The notes under the pieces: generated by a model
The model's input: only the letters and a program-made list of their open reading frames with translations
Told to the model about the DNA's origin: nothing
Database searches by the model: none
Assembly: GCA_905178155.1 (NCBI GenBank)
Contig: CAJINV010000001.1
Location: forward strand, 12,011,832-12,075,831
Origin: Amoebophrya sp. A120
Taxonomy: Eukaryota > Protista > Dinoflagellata
DNA: 64,000 nucleotides
Reading direction: 5' to 3'
Shown here: positions 3,479 to 63,697 of the stretch, piece by piece
Position numbering within the stretch: the first letter of the stretch is position 1
Layout of the letters: each line of letters begins with the position of its first letter
Translations under genes and position numbers: made by a program

Positions 3479-6400
3479 ATGTCGCGTGGTGCAGACCCAC
3501 GACAGGTGTCGTCCGACGTGGGGCTGTGGATGTACATGAACAGGACTGAACGGCGTAACCAGCTCGAGCCCCTGGACTATGACACCATCAATACTTGGCG
3601 AGACAGTGCGGGCATGGCCGAGGCACCGCCCTCCCCCGGCCCGCCACCAGTTTCCCCGCGCAACGGGGAGCAAGATCAGACGAACCTTTATTACGGTGGT
3701 GCAGAACAAAACTACTCCCCGTTCCTCGGCGCGGAGATGGAGCTGGAGCGGCAACAGACGGCCACCGTGCATAACCTTCCAGACGAGGTTGTTGCCTACA
3801 AGGAGCGGTCCGGTTCGTCGCTGGAGCCGTCGCCGACCAACGCCACCGCGACCGCCCGGCGGTCCCCGGTAAACGAGCAATTCGTGATCATGGACCCCGC
3901 AGCCGCGGTGAAGCGCAGAATAGAGCAGTTCAGTGGCGGAGACTACTTGCCCGGCCCGCGGCCGCTTACCTACAAGGACGGCATGGTGGCAGACAAGAAG
4001 ACGGGGCACTTGTATGTGCCCACCGCCTTGGATAAGAAGCTGGCGCGGCAACAGAGGAAGGAACGAAAACGGTGGGAGGAGACGGGCAGCTTGCACCAGC
4101 GTATCACGATGCAAAACTACCGGGACTTTGTCAATCCCGAGGAGGACAGGGCGCTGGTGCGGATGAGCAAGCGACGCGACATGCGCGAGGCTGTGCGGGG
4201 CGGGCATCTGGTGGATGCGAGAGATCTGTTTTTCCTGGGTCCCGCGGATTTGAAAAAGAAGTCTGATTTGGCTAAGCCTGGGATGATGCAGCGCATCCAG
4301 CGCAAGTCGACGCCAGAGGCGGATAGGGAAGAGAATTCTAGTACCAATACAGGAAGTGGAAATGTTAAAAGGAAGTCCTTCGGAGGTGGAAGCGATAATC
4401 AACACACCACCGAGGACATGGTTGCTATTCAGACCCCAAATGAAAAAGACCAGCAGGCCAAGAACACGAATCCGAATCTGAGTATGTACCCGGTTTATTC
4501 GGTGCGCGATTCGCAGGCGCAGCAGTACAACGTGCACAGCGGCGCGAATCTTTGGTCCGAGGCAAACAACTTCACGTCGTCGCTGATGCCACAAGATGGG
4601 GATTACGGCTACATAGACGACGAAGAGGAAGAGGACTACATATTGGACTCTGCTGCGCAAAAGATGAACATGGCAGCCGATTCCGCGGTTGGCGAGGACG
4701 ACTCTGACACTGACTTTGACGATGAGTTCTTCGCGCAAGAAGAGCCAAACTCCCAAGGTGGTCAGCCAGCGAGTTACGAGGTGCGATTGCAGGAGCAGAT
4801 GCGACAGCAGCGCCGGATGGAACTATGGGAGGCGCAGCGACGCCAGGAGTACCTGAACCTGCACAATGAGGTCCACCGGGAGGTTTTTGAATACGAGAAC
4901 CGGGGGCCGCGCAGTTACGAAAAGCAGCTGCGGCAGATGGAGGAAGACCGTTTTGCCGCTCTGCAGCGTGAGGCCCAGCAGCGAAACCAGTACGCCGCCT
5001 TATTTCAGCAGTTGGACGACGTGGAGCCGGCGCAGCCACTGCCGCCGAGTATCAACTGTAAAAATGTCTGGGTCTGGAAGATTGCCAGGTTTGTCATGCA
5101 TGTTTTGCATGACCCCTGACGTCTGTGATGCATGCCCTAGCATCACAGATTTTGTGAGGGCTACCTGATGCCTATACCGCATGACAAATGCTCTTTCAGT
5201 GCAGCAAAACTTGGACTCTCTTTCTTGCTGCTCATGCAATACAGATTTTTTTACAATCCAAAACCAGCATGACAAATTGGATTCTTCCAGACCCAGACAT
5301 TTTTACAGTTGATACCGAGCTACGAGGAGCGATTGTCGAGACTGCAGCAAGACTACGACAAGTTGGAGCTGAAACGGCAACAGGATTCCTCGTCCCGCAT
5401 CACGGATTTAAACGAGGCGATGCGGCACCATGAGGAGAAGCAGCCGGACAGTTTTGAGGACCGGCTCCGCCGCCAGGAGGAGCGGGACGCGCGAAAACGC
5501 GAGAACGTCCTGCGCGGGCGGGGCGGCGGGGCCGCGGGTGGCGCAGGTGTAGGCACCGGTGGTGGTGGTCACGAGAACATTTCTTATCCACTATCAGAGA
5601 CAAGTACGGGTGGGGGTGGACAAACCGGCTTGTCATCAACCGGTTCGCGTAGCCGCGCCCATCGTGCCTTCGATCTTCCGAGTAGTGCTTCGCCGCCACA
5701 ACTTGGAGCAGCGACTGTGAAAAATGCAGCACCAGGATTAGCAGCAAATAAGCAAGGTAGACCACCGGGCTCGCCGCTCCGGTGGTTTGAGGAGCCACAC
5801 GACCCGATTCCTGCCCGTCCGCCAAGCCTGAAGGTGCCCGACAAGTTGCCGTCCAACAATATTGTGTTGTCTCCGTCGACGGAATTGATTCACGACGGGG
5901 TGGTGACGAAAAAGCAGATTCAGATGCGGAATAGCGAACAAGAGCGGCCGTCGCTGGACGATTGGCACCCGTTGTGGCGCACGCCGACAATCCCGCTGGA
6001 CGAAGACGTGCTGAATTCGGAGGAGAATTCGCCTTTCCAAAAGCCGCAGGTGTACAACGGGGGTGCAGGAGGAGATACGGCGGGGAGTAGTAGCAACACC
6101 GGGATGAACATAAATTACAACCCATTCGAGGTGGGCCTGCTCGAGCCGAACACCGAGTCAACCGGGAACCAGACGTACAATACGGTCACGCACACGCCGA
6201 TGCCTTCCGAGCCGCGGACCATCCAAATTGCAGGCCGCATGGGAACTACGAACACCCCGACGACTTCGGCGTGGACCTCGGCGGAAACGGCAGCGACTAG
6301 TGGTCGTTCCTCGCCGGGCTCCAGGACGACCGGGATGATGAAACAAGAGAGAAACAGCAAGAAGCTGCAGGCTGTTCCCACCGCGGAACAGCTGCTCCAG

Positions 6401-7940: not shown

Positions 7941-10900
7941 ATGGCAACTACGCGGGAGCGGAGATTTTTGCAGCGCAGCCCGGCTGCGGCGCTGAGCTTC
8001 GAAGAGGAACTGCGATTGTTGCGGCAGCGGCGGTGGCCACAGATGCCTCAAGGGGGCTCCTGGAATCCGAGGTGCTTGTCCATTCCGTGGAGCGCGACAA
8101 AAAACTTCACTTCGTCCTCCGGAGCCCTCTACCACTCCCCTCCGCGTCGCGCTATGCTTTTTATGCAGAACGAAGGTGCCCCCACCCCGTCTGAGTCTGA
8201 CTACTCCAAGCTGTCTGCGGTTGGGAGAGTTCAGGACGGTTACACTGTTTTTCCTGAGGAGGTAGTCCGAGGCACCGGCACAGCCTCTTCGACAGTGGAA
8301 GACCCGGCGCAGCAGGAAGGTCGCGCAGCCGCCGGAGCAGCGTCGGGTGTGAACGTATCCGTGCGCTCGTCTGCTGCGGAACACATGAACGACTTTGTCG
8401 GGCGGGGGTCCTCCGAAATTCACAGCTACGAAACATATCCCGAGACAGCACTAAAAACACTCGACGTGGCACAAAAATCGTCCGAGAGCACTCATGCTCC
8501 TCCACAGTCCACTGAAGATGCACAGGCCTCAGTCCAATCGTTGCGCGCGGGTCTTGCCGAGCGGAGGGATCGCGAGGACGAGAACGGAAGTGCAACGACT
8601 GGGAAAATAAACAAAGATGACGCCAGCGCGGCGGGTATCATTGACGAGTCAGAGCACGAAGAAGACCAAGACGTAGACGGCACAGGTTCGCCACGACAAG
8701 GTCCGGATAACACGACTCCAGAAGTCGTGGACGAGTTGGTTAGAAGGGATGCAGAGGACGATGAAGGCATCGTTGACGAGATGGATCCGGAAATGGACGA
8801 GGCTGAGGCAGTCGAGAACGCGGGGGATGACGGCTTTGTCGGGGAAGATGTCGACCAGGAGGATGTTGATAACGACGAGCCAAACGAACCTTCGGTTGTC
8901 GAGGATTACGAAGATGCTGATGAAATTTTGCCGCAACCGGGCGACGACGGCACAGATCGCGACGGAGACGAGGAGGAAGCGCGGCGAACCCGGGAACAGA
9001 AGCGCAGCTTTTATTTGCAGAGTGCCGATGGACAGATCCAGGCGCTCGGCGACGACGCGATAAAAGCGAAGCTTGCCGCGCCTTTGTTCGGTCGGGACGC
9101 CGGGGGATGCAGTGATAGTCTGATCGTTCCGGCAAAGTGCGTCCGAAATTGGTTTTTTTGTGCTCCCAGTCGTCAGCAGATGCTCGCAGACCACAACCTT
9201 CCAGCGACTCGGGGCTGGAAGCTAACTGGTGAGGGAGCGCCACGGGCTTTCGAAAGTTCTCTCCTGTCGTTGGGAACTGTCGAAGGTGACAGAAGCTGCT
9301 CGTTCGCGTACCAATCTCGGCAGAAACTGCTCGACCGCATGGGCTCGGTGCTAGAGCACGTCGTTCGCAGTGACAATGGCATCGCGCACGGAGAGCATGC
9401 AGCCAATTTTGCGGAACGGCCAACCGTTCTAGGGGGTCGGGGAGAGTATCCGTGCCCATCGGTGCGCCGCATCACGCGATCACTCGGCAATGGACAAAAC
9501 GGATTTGCGTCTCCAGTGGAATTGTCACCCTCGCACTCGCGCCGCCTTCGCACTTTGATGCATGATTCCCATGACAGGAATCTTAACCCTGATGAAAAAG
9601 GTGACGGTGACGTGACAGAAAACGCTCAAACGGGGGCGACGTGGTCTCCGTCCACCATGGTGGACGCGAAAGCTGCTGATGCCCGCTCAGTGTGGCCCCT
9701 GGAAAGGCAGGCGCGTGCTTTGCAGAAGCTGCACAGGGAGCAGCTGGGCGAGTTTTGCAAGCGCAACCAGGAAGGAAAATTCGCTTTGTCATCCTTGTTT
9801 GATTCGCCCGACGATCGCAACAACGCCGAGCCCGAAGACAGCGAAAACACCGCACGCGACCGATGCGAGAAGCGGCGCCGAAAAATTAGCTCTTGGACGG
9901 TGCCTGAACAGGTATTGAACCACTCCGCAATCACAGTGTTCCAAGAACATCCGACTGAAAGCGCGATGGTATTCGGCACCGAGTCCGGGAATTGGCACGT
10001 AGCGAGGAGGGCAAGGGGGACCTCGTCGGAACAAGAAGACACAGTCGACGATGTGGCATCTTCGAAGGATGACGAGGCGAAGGGGGAGAAAGACCAGTAC
10101 ACGGTGTCTTTCACCCGGCAACACGCGCACCACGCCCCGGTCACGTCCCTCTCGTGCCACCCTCGCGGAAGAGTTTTACTCACAGCATCAGCCGATAGAT
10201 GTCTCCACCTATGGGATTTTCCAACAGAAGGAGAGCTAGAGGGTAAGATTCGAAGGATAGAAATGAGGATAGGTAGGATAGAAATCGATGTCGTACCTTC
10301 TCCACATGCTCGTCTTTTGTTTCAACGCAAGGGAAAGAAACAGTCTCACGACAATTCATGCGGCACAAGTGATTGTGAATCTCAACCCAACCTTTATCGA
10401 TCTGGCACAGGTGCTTCAACCGTGGAGGAAGGACACCAGAAACTCCCACGAGACCCGGTCCTTTCCCACGCTTCGGCGCACATGTCTCACTGTACGGCAT
10501 TTCACGACTTCTCTGATTTTTTCGCCTCTGCCGACAGCGACGGGAACATCCGTGTTTGGGATGTGAATCGTGGGTTCACGCGGGGGCCCTGTGTGACCAT
10601 TTTCGGGCACAAGGCCGAAGCGCGGTCAGTTTGCTTCGAGCACTTCGGAAACGAGATGGTGTCCGCCAGCGGCGACGGAACCGTTTCCCTGTTGGACATG
10701 CGTAGCGGCCTGTGTGTTGCAACGTGGGAACATGCGGAGGTTTCCTCTTCTATTAGGAGCCGCATCCCGCCTCAAAGCCAGTCGCGCGGACAGACCAGAG
10801 AAGACCACCTTCGAGTTGCTTCAGCCGCGCGATATGGTAAAAAGCATCAGCTCCCGCTGTCGTCGCTGAAGATGCCGGTGGAGTTCGAGGGCGTTAACCA

Positions 10901-12046: not shown

Positions 12047-15000
12047 ATGTCTTCGGGGATGAAGCGGTCTGGCGGCACTCCGCAGCGAAGCCTGGCCGCG
12101 GAGCACGCCACCCCTGGACCGGAGAGCCAGTACGCCCAGGTTTCTTCACGCGCACCGGAACAGCAGGGGAGTTCTACTCCTCCGCCGGTGGTTCGCGTGC
12201 CGCCGCTACTGGCGGCGCTGTCGGCGGCACAGGCGGACCACCTCCAACGGGTCAACTTTATGGGACTGGATGTGGATGAGCCGGGGCGTAATTCCCCCAC
12301 GCCGTCGGGCGCAAGCGCACGTGCTCGACCCGGACAGACGGACAAAAACTGCATGCCCGACAGTCTGCGACGCCGGATCGACCGCCGGGTGTCGTTTGTG
12401 GTGGAGAGTCCGCGGTCCATGATTTCGACGACGCCCATGCCGAGTCACCCACTGAACTCCGTGCTCAGCGATCGCAGCTCCGGTAGCGCGCGGGGAGCCG
12501 GAACCGGTCCGCAGCAGCAGGTATCCATTCCCAGTACGAGCACTCTGGTACCGCCACCGTCTCCAGGGACGGCAGGCGCGCCGTCGCGTAACTACACTGC
12601 GGCTGGATCATCGGTCTTTGGTTCTGCTGCGCCGCTGCAGGAGGGCGGAAATTCGACCGTAGGAACTGGCTCCATGACGAAACCAGGCGCCCAGTTGGTC
12701 AGGGACACAAGTGACGACAGTGCTGCAAGCGGTTTCCTCCTCGAACCATCGATGGTGCTGTCACCCGACCACGTTGTCGGCAGCCGCAACTCAGCGTCTG
12801 TCATGCCGCCGCAGGGCCAGCAACCCTTTTCGGTTTCCTCGTTCGCTCGCGAGCCCCTTGAGCTGGATCAGGCAGGTGATCCGGCCACGACGGAACGACA
12901 GCCCGAGCCCGGCACAGAGCGGCACCAGGAAAGTCTGTTGCACAGTAAGATTGCTTCCAGCATGCTGCGGTCCTTTGGGTCGAAGCGGGTTCTGCGGCGA
13001 TCGTCCGGGGCGTTGCGCATTGACACGAGCTCGAACTCGCCACCTAAAGAGAACGACGGCGTATCCCGGTCCGGGCAGCACAACAATGCGCAAAAGTCAG
13101 CGGATGACCGAACCAGCATGTTGCGTCGCGCCTCCCCATCGCGGGCGGCGGAGCTCGAGAAGGGCCGCAACGGCCGGAAACCGATGCTGTCTCCAGCCGC
13201 GTTCGCGTTTCGCGACCCCGACCACCCGATGCCGGACCGGAACGCCCTTGCCACCACGCCGGTGCGATCAGTGGCGGGTGGTGTCCGAACACCCGGTAGT
13301 GGCGGAGTTGCTGCAGGAGGTTCATCTTTGAAAAGGGCGAGCACGCTGGCGTCTTCGGCCTCCCCCTTGGTCGGTGCGGCGCAGCCGGGAGCTTTTTTGC
13401 AGTCGAGCCCGCTGGTGGGAGAGATGAACTACCTCGGATCGCCTGCAGTTACTAGCGCCGCCACTGCCGACGATGAATCAAAAAGTTTCCGTCGGGGGAG
13501 CCCGTTGACTTCCTTCACGCTCGGCACCTCTCTCAAAGCGCATGCCACGCGCTTGTCCACGGCCACAGGCAAGCGACGGGTACCTGCGCCAACCTTGGGT
13601 CCGGGAGAGAGCTTTAAAGTCCCCGCTCTGGCAGGGGCGTTCCGTACCAACGTGAAGACACGATCTGCCGGAACGAGCTTGGCGCAAGCTTTTGTTGACG
13701 ACGCAGGAGCAGCTGCACGCACGCCGGAGACACCAAAAAGAGCGGCGGCCGGGGGAGTCACAACAGTTGCGGTCGAATTAGCTGCGGAATCAAGTTCGCC
13801 AAAGATTCGGGTATGGATTTATTCGTTTGACTATGCAGTACGGACTGCTCCTACAACACATTTAGTTCTGGTTTCGAGAACATGCGTTCTTCGTGTTTTT
13901 GGATTCGAGTATTTAGATCGCTTTCTTATCGACCTGGAAATTTCACAACTGAAAAAATCACCGGACAGCGCGTCTCGCGAGACACGGCAGAGCAGCAGTC
14001 TTCGAAAGTTTCGAGCATCGGGTCTGTTCGTGAGGTGGAGCGGGAGTTGGAAGCCGCGAGAGCCATTGTGACCAGTACTCCACCTGGGGTGGCGGTGATC
14101 CGGATGGCGCTACCGCAGACTCCGGGCGGCGGGATTCTTGGGGACGTCATGCTGCAGCCACCTGTGACCACTTCGTCCAGCAAAGACTCCTTTTTGAGCC
14201 AAAAGGACGAAGAAGATTTTCTCGCTGATGAACGGGAGGGGCCAAAAAAGAACAAAAGTGAGGAGGTTACCGTGGTGTCCACAGGACATCAAATGACGCA
14301 ACAGGCAGAGTCTGCTTTTTTTGCGGGAAAAGACGGTAGCCCGCTGGATCGTGCAGGAACGCAACAGGACAAGGCGGTCACGACATCCAGCAAAACAAGT
14401 TCAGTGCATGACGAGGTTCCGTCTGGTCCAATGATGAAGAGTCAGAAGATTGACGACGCAGAAGAAATACCAGGCGATCTTGCAACGATGAAGAGTCAGA
14501 TCGGCGGAGGAGCTGGCCCTTCGTCGATGTTGGGCGCGAGCTTGCCTATCTCTCCAGTCGGTTCGGTTGGGCGTTCCGGGAGTCCGTTCGACGAAGAAGA
14601 CTACGGAGATGTCGCTGCGACCACGGTGGACGAAATCATTCTCGCTGGGGCAACCGCGGCGGACACGCGACAGACAGGGCTCAACAGAGATGGCACCGGC
14701 GCGGCGGCGCAGGAACTGGACGACCTTGACTTCAGCGGCGACGAAGGTGGTGCACAAAACAAACGTTCTCGAGACGGGGGTCTGTGGTTGAAACAAAGCG
14801 GCGGGGCGGGAGTGGCGGAAGTCGTGGGGGGTTCGGGTTCGCGGCGCGGCGCCGATCGGACCCCGCCAAAGAACAGAGCGCAAGAAATTGACGAGGCGGA
14901 GTCGTTTTCGGCTACCTGGGATCCAGCGACCATGGAGGACGACTTGGCTGCCGCTGCGCGATCTGCGTCCGAGCTCTTCTCGCACGACAGCGGTGAGTCT

Positions 15001-18000
15001 TCTAACAAGCCGTCAGGAACGGATACCTCGCAGCAAACGCCCCCGTCCCGCCAGCGACCGCCGCACGGCGTTAGTACAAGCGGACCAGTGCCAGATCATG
15101 GAGGTTACAAGACGCCCCCACCTCCAGTGTCGAAGTCGCAAACTGGTGCTGGCAGGTCTTCCAGCAAAAATTCAGGAGAAAAGTACTATCGGGAACAACA
15201 CCAAACCACGAGTGGCAGTCCCAAGGGATCTGCACGGCATCCGCACCATGCGCACGGTGGATCTACCCCCGAATCCTTTTCTGCGCGTTCGGGTAAGCTC
15301 CTGCAGCTCGCAGCCCAACGCTACCCAGGCTCCACGTCTACTGGAGGTCGTGGGTTGCAAAAATGGAACGACCAAAGCGGTGCGGCGTACCAGCGAAATG
15401 TTTTTGCGTCGGCTACCTGGCCAGCAAGCGGCACTGCGCTCAGCACGTCGAGCAAAGGCACCATCCAAGAAGACCAGTTCTATCTGGAGCAAGCGCCCGT
15501 GGCGAAGCGGTCGGCGCGAGCGGAGCACAAACCTACGAATAGTGCTATGGTGGCTGGTATTAACGACCCGTCGGGGCAATTGAACCCGCCGAAATCGGTG
15601 CCTTTGCTGCATCGGGATCGCAGCGGCAGCAGTGGCGGCAAAGGTGGGAAGCCGCGGAGCCAAAGCCGGGAACAGTACCGTGAGGAATTGGAATCTCCCC
15701 CGCGAGGGGAAGGGTCACCTTCAAATACGAGGGTGCAACAGCTACTGCACCATCAAATCCTGCACGGTACCATCATGTCCAGCGAGCAGCAAATGCAGCT
15801 TCAAACGAAAGCCTCGAGCCCGCGACCGCCCTCCACGTCCCAACCCGGCTCAGGAAACAAGCGGGGCATGATGCCAATAGAACTACCTGGAGTCGGGGGC
15901 ACATCGTCTACAGCACCAGGAGTACTACAGCAGTCTGCTCCGCCATCTTCCTCGCACGCAGGACCGCATGCCGTGAATGCAGGGCCAGGCGCTTCACTGC
16001 TCAGTTCCGCGGCTTTCCCGGTGGTGGTGGGGGGGTCCGGAACAGCTGGGCCCGGCGCGAGCCAGTCGCTGCTGGCGGGATCTTCATCCGCTCTGTATCT
16101 GCAAATGTCTTCGCTGGAAAATCTTGCGCCGCTCGTGCCATCAGGCACGATTCAACAGCAAGACCAAATACAGTTGGGATCACACAGTTCGTCCGGAGCA
16201 ACGGCATCAGCTGCGCACGCGGCGATGGCGTCCAGCCTGGCAGCGAGTCTGGCTGCATCCAAAGTGGGCGCCGCTCGTCTGAGTCCGGTGCAGTCTCCGG
16301 ATCCCATGGTACGAAGCGGTATGCCTGGCGTCGGCCATCCGCGCGTGCCGCCACTGCAGCTCGGTAGTCGGGATTCTCGCCGCGGTGCCAGGGTGGCCAG
16401 TCTGAAGCAGACCGCGGGGCTTTCCGACGCAAAGGCGCCCGCGAAGCGTGGATTTTGGCGGGAAATTACCGCCGCCAATTTGATGAACCGCGATCATCGC
16501 GGGGCTCCGCCGCCATCGCAACATCCAAACATTGCCAGTGCGGCCGCTGCCTTCCTCCGGAAACAGGGATCTGGGGCAGCGGCGTCCGCATCGTCGCCCT
16601 TCCCGGGCGACCAGGCGGGGCCTCGGTCCCGGTCTCCGAACTCGCGGGAGGACACGAGTTCGCAGAGTCCGCGGAGCGCCCGCGATCGATCACGCGGGCG
16701 GAGGAGCCGAAGTGGGCAACGAGGAGGCAACGTCGGGCAATCCGAAGACGTCAACAAGAGCAGCAGTTCGACCGGACGAGGGTCTTCCGGTCGCAGACCA
16801 ACGTCGGGATCCAGCCGCGACACGAGTGCGCTGCGGACACGATCGGCGTCCGCACGGGAGCCGCAGCGTGCGGCACGGTCCTCCGCGAGTCTTCGCGAGG
16901 CCGCCGCGGGGCTCATCCAGCTTCATACCAGCGCATGGGAAAACCTGCCGCACTGGGCGCAGGGAGAAACCGTGATGGCGCGCAGCGAGACGCGGTCCTC
17001 GGGGTCGCCCAGTACGGGACGGTCCTTACTGTCGGGGCGCAAGTCTTCGGACGGGGTCGACAAGACCGGGCAACCACATCTTCGGTCCCCCTCTCCCCCT
17101 GCGATCCACCCCAAAAGCGCGGTGAGCGCGCCAGCAGCGGCAGTGAGCGCGTTTGCGCAGCAGTTGGAAGAGACTGGGCGCTACGACGACCGGTCGTCCG
17201 CCTTGCTACGAAGCATGTTGGCCGTCTACGACCGTGGGGGGCCACCCGCGGTGCTGTCACGAACGGTAACGCGCGAAGACCAGGGTGGGATCTCGTCCAC
17301 GAGTGGGGCCTCCTCCTCCAGTACTTCGGGCGCCGTGGTGTCCAGTAAGGTCGACTCCTCACGCAACCAAGACCGGACGCCGGGTGGCCGCGCCGAGGGC
17401 ATTTCGAGCAGCAGCTCCAGTTCGTCGAGCTCCTCTTCGTCCACGCCGCCGGGCGGCCAGCGGAGCGACCGATCAAGGGAGCGCAGCCAGCGGGGAGAAA
17501 AGAGGAAGGCTGAGATGCCGATGAACCAGCAGCAGTCGGTTGGCCCGTACGGTGGGGGAGTAGCATCATCGGGCTTGTCCGTTGACGCCTTTGTCGAGCG
17601 ATTGTATCGGCCGAGGTCCGGCCAGTCTCTATCGCCTCGGAGCCAGCAGCAGCGGCACGGGGAGCGCCAGCTGCCACTGGATCACTCCTTGCCGGTCATC
17701 ACCTCCGCGCAAGACGGGTCGCCATCGGGCTTTGTTCTAGCGGGAGTCATCTCACCAGACGGTACTAAGGCCCCGCATCAACTTGGGGTGTCCGCGCCCG
17801 GCAAGATGCGGTCTGATTCTGACGGGGGTGCCTTCATCTCGTCAGATCCCGACAGCGGCGGCGGAGCCTCGGGGCAAGCGGAAAGTGCGAGCCCAACTAG
17901 CAGTCGGAAAGTTGTGCGCCCGCCGCGCCGCGACGAGTCGGACATCAACATTCGAGCGGAGCGCGTACCCCATGGCACCCTCCTAGACCCGGACGCAGGC

Positions 18001-20977
18001 GGGCATGATGAACGCGCTTTACTCGCGCGTTCCCGGCTGGGACCTGCCTTTGGCCGTGGCGAGGGATCCGCGTCTATGCTTCTGGGCACGGGCGACGAAA
18101 CCGGTGAGGAGCACCCCGACGGCATTATGGTGCAGGACGATTCCTCTGCAACCGATCAGGAAGGCCGGGGCGCATCCGAGATGCAGGACGCTGTGCAGCG
18201 CGACATTTCCATGAGTCCCGACATGTACGAGCAGTTTTTTTACAACAAGGCACTGGCGGTCGGGAAGAACGCACCCATCCCGCTCAGCCGCTTTCCTTTC
18301 GTGGGTCGCCGGCTCGCGTTCCCGCCCGTAGTGGTCTACAGCTACTACGCCTGCACCCTAGTTTTGCTCGCGTTGCTGCTTGCGCTGGCCGTGGATGAAG
18401 TGCTGCCTTCGGTCTTGTTCGCGTGCTCCTTCGCTGCGGTTGTCGCTCTAGCCTCTGCGGCAGCGGCTCTCGCCACCGCAACGACGCAAGCGTCCGCGCT
18501 GACAGCAATTTCCCTGGTGCGCCCGTCCAAAAGCTCGGGGAACGGGCAGAAGCTGGTCGCGGCCCTGAGCTCCGGCACCATGTGGCAGAGCGAGGCACTG
18601 GCGACCATGTTCGTGTTGCTAGTTTCCGGCGCATTGTTCGGAATTACATACGCGGAGCGGGAAAAAAGTAAGTTTCCCGGCAGCCCGGGACTCTCGGCAT
18701 TTGCACACGTCGTGCTCTTTCTCTGGTTACTGTTCACAATAGTCCTGCTTGTCTCCGGGACAGTGCTGGTATCCATCCTTGCAAAAGTGCAGCGGGCCAA
18801 CACGCAGCTCTGGAAAAAGTACCTTCTCACATCGCAGTCCGGCACCGCGGCAGCACCAGACGAACAATCGCGGACGACAGGCGGCGCGCCTCGGTTTTCA
18901 CAACCTTCATCCCGGACGATGAGGCTGGAAGAAGACCACGCCATGCAACAGAATGCGAACTTCAGTTTGGTTGGCACAAACGCTTTTAGCGTTGTGCCCG
19001 CAGCAAGTGCAGGAACTGCGGGACCACGGGCTTCCCCTGGGCCAAACACGCCCGCTGTAGAAGGAGTCGAGCCGGCGTTGCCCCCGTCATCTTCCCCGCC
19101 AACGGGAATGACCGCTGGCAGGACGGCTGCCACGGGGATGCACCGATCAAGCGCTGCCGAGGGTATTCTTTCTGCATTTGACCGGTACCGGGCGGAGACT
19201 AGTGGAGGTGATAATACACACCCACAACCTCCCTCAACGTATTCGACCCTATCGCAGCAAGCCCAGCAACAGTCGCTTATGGAAAATATTAACGGCGCAG
19301 ATGACCAATTCCAATTCGAAGGCCAGCACCGAGCAGACGAGCCGGCACACGATTCTGCGAGGATGCGTGATCAGCTGAACGCAACGTGGCGATCGGACAG
19401 CATGCCTCTGCGCGTGGTGGAAATCCCGCTTTCGGCGGGTCAGGAGCACAACCAGAATGGGCTGCGTCTCGACCAGCGGGAGAACGGCAGTTATGGCGTT
19501 TTCCAGAACAGCCGCGGCAGTTACAGTCCGGGGGGAGGTCACCAGCACGCCATAAACAGTTTGGAGAGCAGAGTGCCCAGCCTGGTACCTGCCGCGGGTG
19601 CAGCAGGCGGATCTACTGTGTCGAATGCCTCTACAGGCGGGGCTACGTTCCTGGCGGGAGCAAGTGCGATGTCAAGTAACACACTTATGACATCGACAGC
19701 GGCTGGCGGTCGTGGCAGAAGTGGTGCTAGCCTATCTGAAGTCGGTCTGGAACTACAGCAGTTATCAGCAGCAGATCGGCATCAAGTAGAGCAGCTGCAA
19801 TCTAATGTTTATCCAGTTCACCTGCAACCAGGGCAACAACAGCCGCGCCAGAGTCGTTATGTTTCGGGAAGCGCAGGTCAGCGGGCGACGGCTAAAACCT
19901 TTATCCGCGGCGCACCAACGTCATTTTTCGCTGCAAACGCCAAGCAGCTTCAATCGCTGATGGAGCAGAACTATCAGATGTAAAAATGTCTGGGTCTGGA
20001 AGAGTCATGCTGTTTTTGCATGACACAGAAGGTCTGGCATGGAAGCTCTAGCATTAGAGGTTTCGAGAAGCTTCCGCAATGCCGAATCCGCATGACAAAT
20101 CCCCCACTTTGGTGACAGAAAGTGGGCAGCTTTTGCTACCCATGCATGAGAGATTTTTCTGTGTTCTGAAATGTGCATCACAGATTCGGATTCTTCCAGA
20201 CCCAGACATTTTTACATTTGATAAGAACGGAGCGGTCATGGTCTTGTCTTTGTCTGCGGCGGTCACCTATCAAATGCAAAAATGTCTGGGTCTGGAAGAT
20301 TGCGAGATTTGTCATGCTTGTCTGGCATGACTAAAAAGTTTGTGATGCGTGTCCAAGAAGAGACCCTTTTGCCTGTCATGCAAAAACGCAGTTTGTGTTT
20401 GTCATGCGAAAAACGCAACACAAAGAAGCGCAGATATTTGTTTCTCATGCTTCGCTGTGCATTACAGAGCATTCACTATTCCCAACGCAACATTACAAGT
20501 TTCCAGACCCAGACACTTTTACATTTGATATCACCATCATGAACCTCCTGGCCCTCGCGATCGTCACAGGAGAGACTAAGTATGGGACTGCGAAGGTATT
20601 TTCGTCTTTTCAACACTCATCATTCATAGAATTCGAAAGTACTATTTGCGCTGAAGCCAATTCCACCAATAGCCATGAACCCTTGATGAAAGAGTCAACA
20701 GAAAACAACTACGGGATGCAAATCAACACTCAACTTTTCTCAGTATCACTTCTTCGTGCTTTTTTTCCTGTACGTTGAGTGGACGATCTTGTTTGCGGTC
20801 CTGTGCAAGTTGCTGCGTGAGCTGATCATGTTGACGGCCGACATGCGGGCGGTGGATCCAAGTCTTGGCCTGTCGCTGTTTGGGCATAAGGTGGACGCCA
20901 GCGCCTTTCGCCGCACCGTCGCCTTGCCGATACTCACACTGCTCGTCGCGATTATGGGCAGCCTGCTGTCCTCGTGA
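12047..20977 (+). CDS. Large Ser/Gly-rich multi-pass membrane protein of unknown function; exons 12047-13810, 13969-19971, 20229-20267, 20536-20595, 20744-20977
   Basis: GT-AG introns 13811-13968 and 20596-20743 plus two TIR elements. Spliced C-terminus reads MEQNGAVMVLSLSAAVTIMNLLALAIVTGETKYGTAKYHFFVLFFLYVEWTILF..., giving continuous hydrophobic helices; more TM segments at ~18330-18790. Confidence 0.7.
19972..20223. mobile_element. Introner/MITE-like element copy 2 (252 bp)
   Basis: 32-bp TIR with 1 mismatch (19972-20003 / 20192-20223); TSD AGAAC at 19967-19971 and 20224-20228. Confidence 0.95.
20268..20530. mobile_element. Introner/MITE-like element copy 3 (263 bp)
   Basis: 30-bp TIR with 2 mismatches (20268-20297 / 20501-20530); TSD TCACC at 20263-20267 and 20531-20535. 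Confidence 0.95.
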
Positions 20978-21671
20978 GGAAACTAGCTACTGGCAAAAGC
21001 GGTGCAGCCGTCTGCAGCCAGTCACCTCGTGTGATGAATCTGAAGCGAAACTATTTTTGATGAGAATGCACTAATCAGGCACAATATTTTCTTGAAATCG
21101 TCGATATTATCTTGCTTTTACTACACTACTCATACCTACGCCATGTACGATATGCGTCTTTCCTTTTTTTCGTGTCATCTACACGTACGAAGACCTTGTT
21201 TCGAATTCAACAACTTGAACTTCATGATTCATTTTTCATCGAACAGAGTATTGAGTCCAAATGTAATTTTTTTGGCATCTTTTCGCTGTAGATCAGGAAT
21301 TTATTGGTTTTGGACACGACCACAAATGACTTTGACGAAGAGCATCTTTTGCACGTATTCTTGTTTTGGCATGGATTTCATACATTAGAAAATTGGAAAT
21401 TATGAAAACGACACACACACCCCGAACCGGGTTGTACCAGATTGTGCGTCGGACGGTCGTATCGTCGTCGTATTTGGGGTTTTGTTTACAGATTATGAGT
21501 TCGTGTAACTGCAGATACAGTTTGCGGCTTTTTCTTCGTTCCATCCTGTCTGGCTGACACGCGTTGAGACATACTGCTCGACTGCCACGAGGCTTAGAAA
21601 ATAGATTAGGACTGACGAGAGAATGCTGACAAACGTGCGAAGAGAGCACCATTGCAACTTCATCACGAAAA

Positions 21672-22421
21672 ATGAGTCATTGCACGAGTTGGATTCCGTT
21701 GCTCATTTGGACGGCATCCACGACCCTGTCAAGCGTGCTTCCAACGACATTTGCGACAGAGACGAATCGCGTCGTTGACGGTGTGCACGTGATAACGCTG
21801 GATCCCGAGGGAGACCGATTTCGAAGTTTTCGCGAGAACAACGAGCACTTGTTCCCGCGCAGCGACGTCGGCCCAAGTACTCCATCTACACCAGGAGCGT
21901 CAGCAGACAGAGAAAAAAATCCGGCGGTGGAAGCCGTGCGTGGGGTGAACGGCTGGCGTTTAGACATGGAAACGTTGGTAGAGCGGGGTGTCGTGAGCCG
22001 CGAAATGGCGGAGCGCACGGCGTATTTCCAGACTCCCGGTCGGGCGGGGTGTTTGCTGAGTCACCTCAAGACTTGGCGCCGGATCGTCAAAAGAGCAGAG
22101 AGGAAAAAACGAAAGCAGCAGAACCCCCGGGAGAACAACAAGGAAGACATGCAGCTCCACCTTGTCCTGGAAGACGACGCCATCACGAGCCCGTTTATTC
22201 TCAGGGTTTTTGAAGTCGTGCCGAAATTCATTCGGTTGCTAGCTGAGAAGAAGCACAACCTCGATTTTTTGCACTGCGGCCCTAACCTTGACGGCATGGT
22301 GATTTCCGAGCCCCCGGGGGGTGGCCTGAGCACGGTGTTGTTTGCCCCTCGTGTTTCAAGCCAAATCTACCGGCACCATGCTGGAGGTCACTGCGCCTCC
22401 GGGATATTCGTTCCTCCCTGA
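21672..22421 (+). CDS. Glycosyltransferase family 25-like protein with signal peptide (C-terminal part apparently truncated or frameshifted)
   Basis: GT25-type motifs HVITLDPEGDRFRSF, GCLLSHLKTWRRI, LVLEDDA, LDFLH; hydrophobic N-terminus. Confidence 0.7.
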   Translation: MSHCTSWIPLLIWTASTTLSSVLPTTFATETNRVVDGVHVITLDPEGDRFRSFRENNEHLFPRSDVGPSTPSTPGASADREKNPAVEAVRGVNGWRLDMETLVERGVVSREMAERTAYFQTPGRAGCLLSHLKTWRRIVKRAERKKRKQQNPRENNKEDMQLHLVLEDDAITSPFILRVFEVVPKFIRLLAEKKHNLDFLHCGPNLDGMVISEPPGGGLSTVLFAPRVSSQIYRHHAGGHCASGIFVPP

Positions 22422-50874: not shown

Positions 50875-53800
50875 ATGTGCAGAAAATCGACCACCGGGTC
50901 TGGCTCTCGAGCGCGCCATCGTATGATGGTTGCCTCAATAGTTTTTGCGGGCTGCCGTGGGATCTTTTTCCAGAGCGGAATTTTTTTTGTCGACGCCGTC
51001 GCTTTCGTGGCTCCGCACAAGGTCAGCAAAAAGAGGTCGTCTACGGAAGGCGAGGAGCTCGCGACTCCGAAGACACGACCAATCGTCTGGGCGGACGTAA
51101 AGGAAGATGACGAAGAGGAACCAGCTCCAGTGCAACAGCCATCAAGCGTACAAGGAGTTCAGGCGTCGCAAGAGGAACGCACTTCATTTGCGCAACAAGG
51201 GCCTGCAAATAATAATAACGCAAATGCAGTATTTTTACCGACACCAGAAGCTGCAGCCACAGTTCCTCCCCCGCCCGCACCCTATGTGCGTTCGGCCGGC
51301 ACAGAAGGGCACGAATATGGACAGTGCGCGCTTCTGCATTGTAAGTACGCGGCAAAAGTAAGGGGGTGCAAAGACGGGGCAAACTGCGTGCGGTGCCATC
51401 TATGCCCGAGGGACGTTGGTAAACCGAGCACGTCGGAATCGTCGTGGTCCTGGAACAAATCAAAAAGGAGCTATGCGACAAGATGGTACAACAACGACCA
51501 GTGCGCCGGAGGACCATGCTGGGCTGCTGAGGGCGGTAGTCGAAACGTCAAGACCCGCGGGGGCCCAGCTGGAGGTGGTTCTGGTTCGTCCTCCTCCGGA
51601 AGTGGCGTTATGAGGGTCGATTGACCATAACCATTCAGCCCATTTAAGCCATTCGCAAAAAATGAAAAGCAAAACCGTAGGGGCTTGCTCTCCGGGGTCT
51701 TTTCCTGGGGGCAGGCTGGTTGCAAGTATAGACCTACCCCTCGGCGCTGCGGAGCCTGTCTTCCTCGTCCCCGAACTTCGGGGCGTGGTCTCGCGGCTAA
51801 GCGGCGGGCTCCGCGTCATGGCACGGCAAAATAACCGAAAATGACAAGGAGCCGAGCTGGAACGAGGGGACTTGTTGATGAACAATTACCGGCGTAGCTA
51901 CTTCGTTTTGACTAAATTCGGACCATTTTTCGTTGTTGCAAAGTTGCGCGCTTCGGGTCGTCTTTTCGATTTCGGCCGCCCGGCGCGGCGAGAGAATTTG
52001 TTGAGAGAGGAAAAAATGCAGCGCCTTTCAGGCCAGAAAAAAAAAAATCTAGCTCAAAGCGCGCGCTGGCCATTCGGGCCATTCGAGCCATTCGCGCGGG
52101 CCGCCAGGGAGCGGCCGGCGCACCGTTCAGGGGCAGTCCATTCGACCCATTCGCGCGCGCGAACGGCCCGAATGGGCTGAATGGATCGAATGGACCTAAC
52201 GGCCTGAATGGCTCGAGTTTTCGGTCCATTTAGGCCGGCCCGGTGGGCCGCTCGATCCATTCGGGCCCTGCGAATGGGCCGAATGGGTCGAGTGGCTCGA
52301 ATGGATTTCCGGTCGTTTTTCGAATGGATTGAATGGCCCGCGGCTGAACGGGCCCGCGCGCCGGCTGGGCCGGCCTAGTCCGAAGGCCTGGCAGTCTGGC
52401 CGGAAGCGCTGTGGTGGAGGGCCGGGCGCCTCGTTTGCGTCATATTTTTTTGCCTGCTGGCAGGATGACGGAATCGAAAATGCCATAGAAGCGGAGGGGA
52501 GCATTGGCTGGCGTAGCTGGCATCTTGCGCTGCGTGCGCGTGGGCCCTTTGCTCCGGCCGAGCCTCGGGTCGTCGTTTCGCCACCATCGCGTCTCGGCTT
52601 GGATTCGCGGGAGTTGTGCGAGGGGTGGCGCACCAGGTCCCAGGTGGAGATAATCTGGAGCAGCATTGCTGTCGGGCTCCGTGGAGATGAATGGCCGAAA
52701 TGTTCAGCAGTGCCACGACCGGGAACACAGATGGCGGAGAAGCTGGCCCCGCGACCATTCTGGCTCAAGTTGGTTTGCATGGAAATTTTTTTTTTTTTCT
52801 TCAATGGTCTAAATGGCTCGAATGGTTCTGGTTCGTCCTCTTCCGGAAGTGGTGCACAACGATTGTTCCCCACAGACAGCAGAAAAATCGGATTCGGATC
52901 GCTGGCCAGTCACCCGAGCAACAGGGCAGCTGTGGACCGAAAGGAGCGGAGTGATGCTGCAGACGCGACGCCTCCGAACGCGGACACTGCATCGACGAGG
53001 ACCAGTCTGCCTTCCAAGGGCTCGTTTTCTTCAATTTCGGAGTTGTACGATCCCGACCGAGCAGACCGGGCGTGGCAGAAGAAACAAGTGCGTCGTGGTG
53101 GTAATCGTGGCAGAGGAGGACGGGGGCGCGGTAGAGATAATCCGTGTGCAGAAGGAACAGAAGCCTCTTTGTCCGACGACGCCTCTCCCACTGAGGAACA
53201 ATGGCAAGAAGACCCTGCATTCCGGGAATCGGAATCGGCAATGCAAGCATTTCCGCCAGGCGACTTCGTTTCCGCAATGGAATCGGACGAAACTACTTTG
53301 CCAGTCTCGATGGTGTGGGTTGGTGCTGATGGCACTTGTGTTGTGTCTCCCGCCTCGCCCGGCGAATGCGAACAGTTCGGGTTTGCACTAACTAGTGCAC
53401 CAGAACAGATGCAAATGATGGAATCACAGTCGTGTTATTTCGTTCCGGCACAGACGAGCGGCGATATGCAGAACTGCTGGAGCCCGGCGGATTATGATCA
53501 AAGCGAAGAGTATGGTTCCATATCTTGCGCCGCTGTTCCTGTTGTTGTACCCGATGCGCCCTGCTATGCACTCGCAGATGCTGTGGCGCAAGGGGTTCAT
53601 GTTGACAAAGACTACTTGCAACGACAAAAGGAAGAGGAATGGAGCAAATTTGCTTTCCAGGGCGGCCCACAGTCCGGGCTGACAGGTGGGTGTTTTGTTC
53701 CGCCACCTCCGGTTCCGGTTGCGCAAGCGCGACGTGAAGGGGCGGACTCGGTGGGATTCATTTCTCAGCTTCCCTTTCGTCCGACAGAAGGTGCAGGGGC

Positions 53801-63375: not shown

Positions 63376-63697
63376 TATGAATCGAAAATTCATTTGGCTG
63401 GGTCTGGAAGACTGCAGGTTTCTCTTCGATGCCATTCGTACATCGCCAAACATTCTGCTTTGCAGGAAGGAGGAGCAAAAGCTGTTAGTTTTTTTTTGGC
63501 GGAGATTTATGGATTTGTCATGCAGAATGGGCCTCCAGTGAGTGTGCATCAGTATCTGCATTCGCAAAGCCAAAAAGCCTTGCTAGAACCTGTGATGCCA
63601 CGCTATGCATTGTAGACTTTGTGCGGGGATGAGATGAAAATCCGCATCACACAAAGGATCTGCACTCTCCCAGACCCAGACATGTTTGCGGTGGATA
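63376..63697. mobile_element. Degenerate copy 4 of the introner/MITE family (~322 bp)
   Basis: CTGGGTCTGGAAGA at ~63398-63411 and CCCAGACCCAGACATGTTTGCGGTGGATA ending at 63697; flanks GCGTT (63371-63375) and GCGTC (63698-63702); same internal TTTGTCATGC / GCATCACA motifs. Confidence 0.8.

Follow-up and report, generated by a model that had tools for sequence, protein, structure and literature searches.

What sets the junctions of an intron that displays no recognizable splice dinucleotides, and what determines that its two ends are joined to each other rather than to those of a neighbouring twin? Tens of thousands of non-GT-AG introns are removed in Amoebophrya; in every ordinary copy, the target site duplication (TSD) masks the true cut site (PMC7789003). 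The window (the whole 64-kb stretch of Amoebophrya sp. A120 DNA analysed here) contains a locus where both questions meet, since two introner elements with terminal inverted repeats (TIRs) flank an exon of 39 nt inside a gene with predicted transmembrane (TM) helices. The features of this locus, together with two further members of the same family, are as follows.

5050..5314 (no strand): introner element 1, TSD CCGAG, 270-nt removal, located in another gene; same family.
13831..19971 (+ strand): upstream coding stretch, a stop-to-stop ORF of 2,050 codons (ORF list, hydropathy, transcript contig).
19967-19971 (+ strand): left TSD of element 2, AGAAC, the last 5 nt of the upstream coding stretch.
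19972..20223 (no strand): introner element 2, 252 nt, TAT..ATA ends, TIRs of about 35 nt (31/32 paired); joint 19966>20224 in run X1.
20224..20228 (+ strand): right TSD of element 2, AGAAC, an exact 5-nt match to the left copy.
20229..20267 (+ strand): 39-nt micro-exon GAVMVLSLSAAVT, first half of predicted TM helix 5, kept in the contigs of runs X1, X2 and X4.
20263-20267 (+ strand): left TSD of element 3, TCACC, the last 5 nt of the micro-exon (from the sequence).
20268..20530 (no strand): introner element 3, 263 nt, TAT..ATA ends, TIRs 28/32 paired; joint 20262>20531 in run X1.
20531..20535 (+ strand): right TSD of element 3, TCACC, an exact 5-nt match to the left copy.
20536..20595 (+ strand): 60-nt exon, second half of predicted TM helix 5 (transcript contig, hydropathy).
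20596..20743 (+ strand): canonical GT..AG intron, 148 nt (X1 joint; unbroken in X5 contig 20507-21999).
20744..20977 (+ strand): last coding exon, 77 aa and stop, predicted TM helices 6 and 7 (ORF, transcript contigs, hydropathy).
63385..63697, approximate (no strand): fourth family member, degenerate and reduced to its TIR cores; the ends are decayed and lack an exact 5-nt TSD (TIR match).

Elements 2 and 3 were separated by 44 nt and each was bounded by an exact 5-nt repeat, a match that would arise by chance with a probability of about 1e-3 per element when the register is fixed. The excision unit was composed of the element and one TSD copy, i.e. 257 nt for element 2 and 268 nt for element 3. 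Element 3 can be read in six equivalent registers (TC..TA, CA..AT, AC..TC, CC..CA, CT..AC and TA..CC), none of which displayed a GT or an AG end. Those of element 2 offered an AG end (AA..AG) or a GA start (GA..AA), never both together, and no register with U2 spliceosomal ends (GT/GC/GA..AG) was found in either element. On the antisense strand, the CT..AC register of element 3 (20267-20534) becomes GT..AG and could be wrongly annotated by aligners as a canonical intron of the minus strand; the predominant A120 intron classes include CT-AC, with 2% in Table S4 of PMC7789003.

The arms of the two elements were interchangeable, all combinations displaying 28-32 pairs out of 32. The left arm of element 2 (L2) paired with the right arm of element 3 (R3) at 28/32 positions, as many as between element 3's own arms, and R2 paired with L3 at 31/32. 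The outer span (19972-20535) measures 564 nt, a multiple of three; the six registers in which the exon could be skipped are all in frame and yield four distinguishable junctions (TCACC, ACACC, AGACC and AGAAC). When aligned, the interiors of the two elements scored close to shuffled controls, slightly higher in one orientation and slightly lower in the other. Most of this layout had been proposed in a sequence-only reading of the stretch, namely two introners around a 13-codon exon, removal lengths of 257 and 268 nt that rebuild a TM segment, complementarity of the outer arms, an outer span divisible by three and dissimilar outer TSDs; coordinates and exact TSDs agreed with it on each of these points. 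Two features came in addition, i.e. the antisense GT..AG reading of CT..AC and the canonical intron 20596-20743, which completes the gene.

Elements 2 and 3 are ordinary members of the introner elements (IEs) published for Amoebophrya sp. A120, whose published families number 1,954. A WD40 ORF of the window was 100% identical over 231 residues to a protein labelled Amoebophrya sp. A120, and none of the other 68 matches exceeded 45%. As described in Farhat 2021 (PMC7789003), A120 IEs carry inverted repeats together with direct repeats of 3-5 nt, and the inverted repeats consist of TAT, then seven less-conserved bases, then a run of A. All five features of the class were found in the window's twin elements. 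Like element 1, they started with TAT, seven variable nucleotides and at least three A, as in the published IE definition. Their inverted repeats joined the intron ends, with 31/32 paired positions in element 2 and 28/32 in element 3, and direct repeats within the 3-5 nt range (AGAAC and TCACC, respectively) occurred at the exon/intron boundaries. Repetition was apparent from three intact copies and one degenerate copy in the 64-kb window and from a very high summed depth in the DNA-like run X5. Finally, removal was recorded by the 257- and 268-nt joints with non-canonical ends, observed in cDNA-derived contigs.

Amoebophrya introners are treated as established by Gozashti et al. 2025 (PMC12130899) and likewise accepted in reviews PMC11453091 and PMC11282704. 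According to Farhat 2021 (PMC7789003), non-canonical introns exceed 60% of those with RNA support in A120 and U1 snRNA was undetected; the position of the intron border (Fig. 3 legend) and the splicing mechanism were left unexplained there. Its main text does not mention skipping and refers to alternative splicing only in a reference; its sections 11, 12 and 16 do not discuss adjacent elements with competing stems, and the figures may show adjacent examples (PMC7789003). Our literature search, for the most part confined to journals outside subscription, retrieved no paper on adjacent introners with micro-exons, nor on a register test based on twin junctions.

Of ten sequencing runs listed, eight were compared with the stretch. 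Removal of the two elements was followed in the transcript-like assembled contigs of four of these, from one sample (X1 to X4), a type of data in which rare isoforms are dropped. These runs are not recorded as RNA; they were taken as such because their contigs skip GT..AG introns that X5 holds unbroken, and because one contig ends in an A run. The spliced inclusion form, with 257 and 268 nt removed and the 39-nt exon kept, was present in three of the four runs (X1, X2 and X4) and was the main contig in each of them; X3 is ambiguous on this point. In X1, a contig of 3,866 nt (depth 54.7) lacked both excision units as well as the 148-nt GT..AG intron. Its joints were 19966>20224, 20262>20531 and 20593>20742 (cut +2), and it displayed no differences from the window over 17500-19966. 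Since the second joint is 20262>20531, the nearby GT at 20262 was unused. According to the record coordinates of X2 and X4, the sequence joining 19966 to 20742 amounts to exactly 102 nt (39+63), as in X1, which corresponds to inclusion. A 564-nt skip was absent from the seven joints listed for X1, in assembled contigs that would hide rare isoforms, and exon skipping at this locus is at most rare. The spliced contigs pass the in-frame stop at 19981-19983 that a retained element 2 would introduce, and they join the downstream exons to the upstream ORF, contrary to the two outcomes that the sequence-only reading had named against itself. Transcript contigs of the host gene ended at about 21370-21412.

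Both elements are present in DNA, since one X5 contig (5290-20000) extends into element 2 and another (20507-21999) begins within element 3 and leaves it. Summed X5 depth amounted to 53,705 and 151,041 in the element bins versus about 43 in unique sequence, a ratio above 1,000 that indicates a high copy number and is not itself a copy number. X5 joints recorded as 'skips 40-51' were attributed to other loci and rejected as exon deletions; their intervening sequence is unspecified and X5 joints are dominated by paralogs. The raw RNA runs X8, X9 and X10 provided 97, 1 and 0 reads, respectively, all partial and inside the elements, and constitute no test of skipping. At 20192-20223, about 89 raw RNA reads of X8 matched the right TIR only and continued into foreign flanks, and thus belong to another family copy that was unspliced in the X8 library.

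At the protein level, the upstream ORF displayed four predicted TM helices (near 18330-18800), then a low-complexity loop of about 390 aa between TM4 and TM5. Removal of 257 and 268 nt placed the micro-exon in frame and rebuilt a single hydrophobic segment (KD 2.31); by hydropathy scan, the spliced product contained seven such segments, the micro-exon providing the first half of the fifth. The downstream 148-nt GT..AG intron was spliced in exactly the frame restored by both excisions. When the exon was skipped, the fifth segment (predicted TM5) vanished from the scan, which therefore argues against a useful skip isoform. Retention of either element led to a stop within 3-19 codons and to the loss of three TM helices.

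Searches with the separate exons of the host protein gave 0 Pfam families, 0 homolog matches and no atlas match at or above 0.9, and a single-sequence model of TM1-4 (pLDDT 62, pTM 0.40) matched generic helical bundles only. The general layout is reminiscent of 7TM channels of the GR/OR/DUF3537 type, among them the insect GR/OR-like ones, a likeness that no search supported. Channels of this type are characterized by seven TM helices, a long IL2, a TM7 motif and a length of about 350-500 aa (PMC7746228). The host protein displayed seven predicted segments and a long loop after TM4, but its ORF is far longer.

The sequence-only reading had suggested that competing stems could form, and folding of the region agreed with this. 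The 611-nt region was far more structured than its shuffled counterparts (z -11.5; 0/20 shuffles folded as well), and the form predicted at equilibrium, with P about 1.0, was a nested one in which an outer L2-R3 stem and an inner R2-L3 stem place the exon in a loop. Its ensemble energy was -252.4 kcal/mol versus -242.0 kcal/mol for two separate hairpins. The nested form was ahead by 8-15 kcal/mol in all six flank/temperature settings, which represents 3-6% of the total and is near model error. Prefix folding gave P(L2-R2) = 1.0 for transcripts ending at 20215-20290, and the equilibrium switched to R2-L3 once the left arm of element 3 existed (P 0.64 at 20305, 0.96-1.0 from 20320). After removal of element 2, element 3 was predicted to fold on itself. 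On these models the competing nested stem is credible on thermodynamic grounds, yet the main transcript does not reflect it, which speaks for partner choice being governed by more than pairing at equilibrium. The nested fold being more stable and inclusion nevertheless dominant, either first-come pairing or TSD checking is therefore called for. The only Rfam match, a sub-threshold one to the hairpin MIR7504 over the R2-exon-L3 stem (34.7 bits versus a cut-off of 83), was discarded as structural chance.

We consider it probable that the locus results from two independent insertions, each removed via its own terminal stem and not via dinucleotides, with the order of synthesis picking the partners. 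Two elements of about 260 nt likely inserted independently in a membrane-protein gene, by a cut-and-paste reaction that would have involved a transposase. Their junctions would be measured from the terminal stem instead of being read from dinucleotides, and the order of synthesis would set the pairing partners. The stem of element 2, of about 35 bp, would close some 70 nt before the left arm of element 3 is complete; element 2 would then be excised or kinetically trapped, so that element 3 pairs with itself, and skipping would be a rare error and not a regulated isoform. This model needs fast excision or slow refolding because the equilibrium fold switches to R2-L3 as soon as the left arm of element 3 exists. 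Euglenid nonconventional introns are removed after the conventional ones (PMC11282704); late removal of this type, if valid here, would argue against fast excision.

The family was further examined by a census with a 30-nt TIR pattern, which yielded 140 distinct loci in 18 of the 64 parts of a metagenome collection and stands in for a whole-genome count; all of the 79 loci listed came from one related assembly (JACKZZ01), which may not be the window's strain. The 159 complete elements had a median length of 262 nt. TAT..ATA ends occurred in 150 of them and an exact 5-bp TSD, the fixed length in this family, in 132, leaving 27 copies without one. In the 132 exact-TSD elements, considered in both orientations, a GT-AG register was possible in 13/264 and neither GT nor AG was available in 82/264 (31%); element 3 is therefore typical of the family. 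Its lack of GT and AG ends, which the sequence-only reading had singled out, is thus real in all six registers without being special. Strand was called for 66 of the 107 elements tested, and in comparison with flanking 5-mers their TSDs were not enriched in possible splice sites, either GT donors (29 elements, p 0.90) or AG acceptors (37 elements, p 0.18).

Close neighbours were frequent in this family. Gaps below 130 nt were recorded in 20/77 cases (29-122 nt), with a smallest gap of 29 nt and none below 25 nt. After correction for locus length, this is a 2.5-3.2-fold excess over longer distances (p 9e-4 to 5e-5), possibly inflated by uneven gene density and locus choice. An insertion preference combined with a minimum exon size could account for such short-range clustering. 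Tandem duplication or local hopping was rejected as its source, since close neighbours resembled each other no more than randomly paired elements did (n=11, p 0.34). The open frame after excision was kept in 7/9 testable twins, and the nested fold was the lower one in 8/11 complete twins no more than 300 nt apart in the + orientation (7/11 in the - orientation). One locus (L104:1-932) contained three consecutive family elements with gaps of 29 and 39 nt. Another (L052:4001-5031) displayed two nearby elements that both had the TSD GGCGG, the sole non-adjacent TSD match and a matched-TSD control, although an element-like stretch may intervene. Long copies (324-1255 nt) among the 140 loci, a partial sample, contained no transposase that would designate an autonomous element, their longest stop-free stretch being 156 aa; the longer copies L036, L037, L054, L056, L005 and L072 (481-1255 nt) were likewise devoid of long ORFs. 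The TIR was not found in viral contigs.

Stem-directed removal in order of synthesis has to be weighed against a machinery that checks TSDs, i.e. that requires the stem to be flanked by identical 5-mers and for which the nested outer stem would be a dead end even if formed. TSD matching predicts the same inclusion-only result, and the present data cannot separate it from the kinetic model. It would explain why only inclusion was observed in spite of a nested fold predicted to be more stable in 6/6 settings, and it agrees with the exact TSDs kept in 132/159 family copies; however, such TSDs are expected anyway from young insertions and from the coding frame, and 27 copies, which may or may not be spliced, lack an exact one. 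We know of no enzyme that matches repeats at the RNA level, and on the whole this explanation appears rather unlikely. More improbable still is the structure-driven alternative splicing put forward in the sequence-only reading, in which the nested fold competes in vivo and produces an appreciable in-frame isoform lacking 13 residues. No skip was present among the seven X1 joints listed, X2 and X4 display inclusion, and half of a predicted TM helix would be lost. A minor form could escape assembled contigs, folding predicts the nested form at equilibrium and all six skip registers preserve the frame, but frame preservation is a one-in-three chance and was not enriched among twins: spacers of at most 130 nt were multiples of three in 8/20 cases (p 0.64 versus one third), a small sample in which some spacers may be non-coding.

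The junctions might also be artefacts of reverse transcriptase switching template across hairpins with direct repeats. Direct repeats and secondary structure are known to give false non-canonical introns (PMC4176328), TSD-matched (inclusion) products only would be expected here as well, and the main text of Farhat 2021 (PMC7789003) mentions neither template switching nor direct RNA. We nevertheless hold this to be very improbable: three runs have the joined form as their main contig, its canonical downstream intron is spliced in the frame that both excisions restore, a retained element would cut off three TM helices, and non-canonical introns form the majority of the RNA-supported ones in A120 (PMC7789003). 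Least credible of all is the composite transposon carrying the micro-exon, which had been proposed from the sequence as well. Although a transposase could in principle take the outer ends, the arms being interchangeable, each element has its own TSD, the outer flanks (AGAAC versus TCACC) form no TSD at any length of 2-8 nt, and the interiors are close to shuffled controls. An outer TSD was likewise found in 0/43 complete twin pairs, and the exon core, single-copy in the window, had no match in a partial search of the 140 family loci. The locus is no new system, and both regulated skipping and composite mobility are unsupported.

Its value as a test of stem versus TSD, as anticipated in the sequence-only reading, lies in the unmatched outer TSDs: any skip read reports its register, and the frequency of skipping tells a mechanism based on the stem alone from one that checks TSDs. 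A broader proposal is possible but doubtful, namely that the machinery is blind to sequence, measures from the stem and commits co-transcriptionally, so that close twins would leak rare exon-skip products whose hybrid junction reveals the cut register. If it were true, a TCACC, ACACC, AGACC or AGAAC junction would for the first time show directly in which register this splicing reaction cuts. The locus and many similar twins provide ready-made tests, and a comparison of twins whose TSDs match with twins whose TSDs do not would distinguish between the two leading mechanisms, i.e. removal in order of synthesis and TSD checking.

Among known systems, the published A120 IEs (PMC7789003) share with elements 2 and 3 the organism, inverted repeats starting with TAT, 5-bp direct repeats, a size of about 260 nt, non-canonical ends, the lack of an internal transposase and RNA-supported removal; the TIRs described here are about 32-35 nt long versus motifs of 8-20 nt in that study. 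Euglenid nonconventional introns (PMC11282704, PMC12501133) resemble the elements by non-GT-AG ends, terminal pairing that joins the ends, frequent direct repeats blurring the junction, a probable MITE origin and an unresolved mechanism. They differ in that they depend on a CAG..CTG motif of constant spacing and on a pyrimidine|purine junction, in contrast to the long TIRs and unbiased TSDs encountered here (PMC11282704). The euglenid arrangement of CAG (+4..+6) and CTG (-8..-6) was absent from our elements: CAG occurred at +4 in element 2 only, without a matching CTG, and elements 1 and 3 displayed CAA. MITEs and other non-autonomous TIR DNA transposons share TIRs, fixed-length TSDs, many copies, short size and absence of coding sequence. 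Introners of Micromonas and Aureococcus are also short, TIR-bounded, devoid of coding capacity and flanked by a fixed TSD, but use canonical splice motifs, which the elements described here do not (PMC7789003).

In the remainder of the window, a general scan for inverted and direct repeats gave 30 candidates versus 11 in each of three shuffles, and the strict test (TAT..ATA ends and a 5-bp TSD) was passed by elements 1-3 only. Element 1 displayed perfect 32-nt TIRs and interrupts a coiled-coil-like ORF whose frame is restored by the 270-nt removal; a contig piece of run X3 begins at 5315, consistent with its excision. No tRNA was found in the 64-kb window. Canonical GT..AG introns occurred in two WD40 genes, at 2060-2185 (126 nt) and 10243-10410 (168 nt), the latter being in frame and stop-free, so that it reads through in ORF scans. 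Finally, short imperfect repeats with CCATTC/GAATGG-like units, some direct and some inverted, were clustered at 51570-52860, together with a 30-nt direct repeat whose copies lie 1,247 nt apart.
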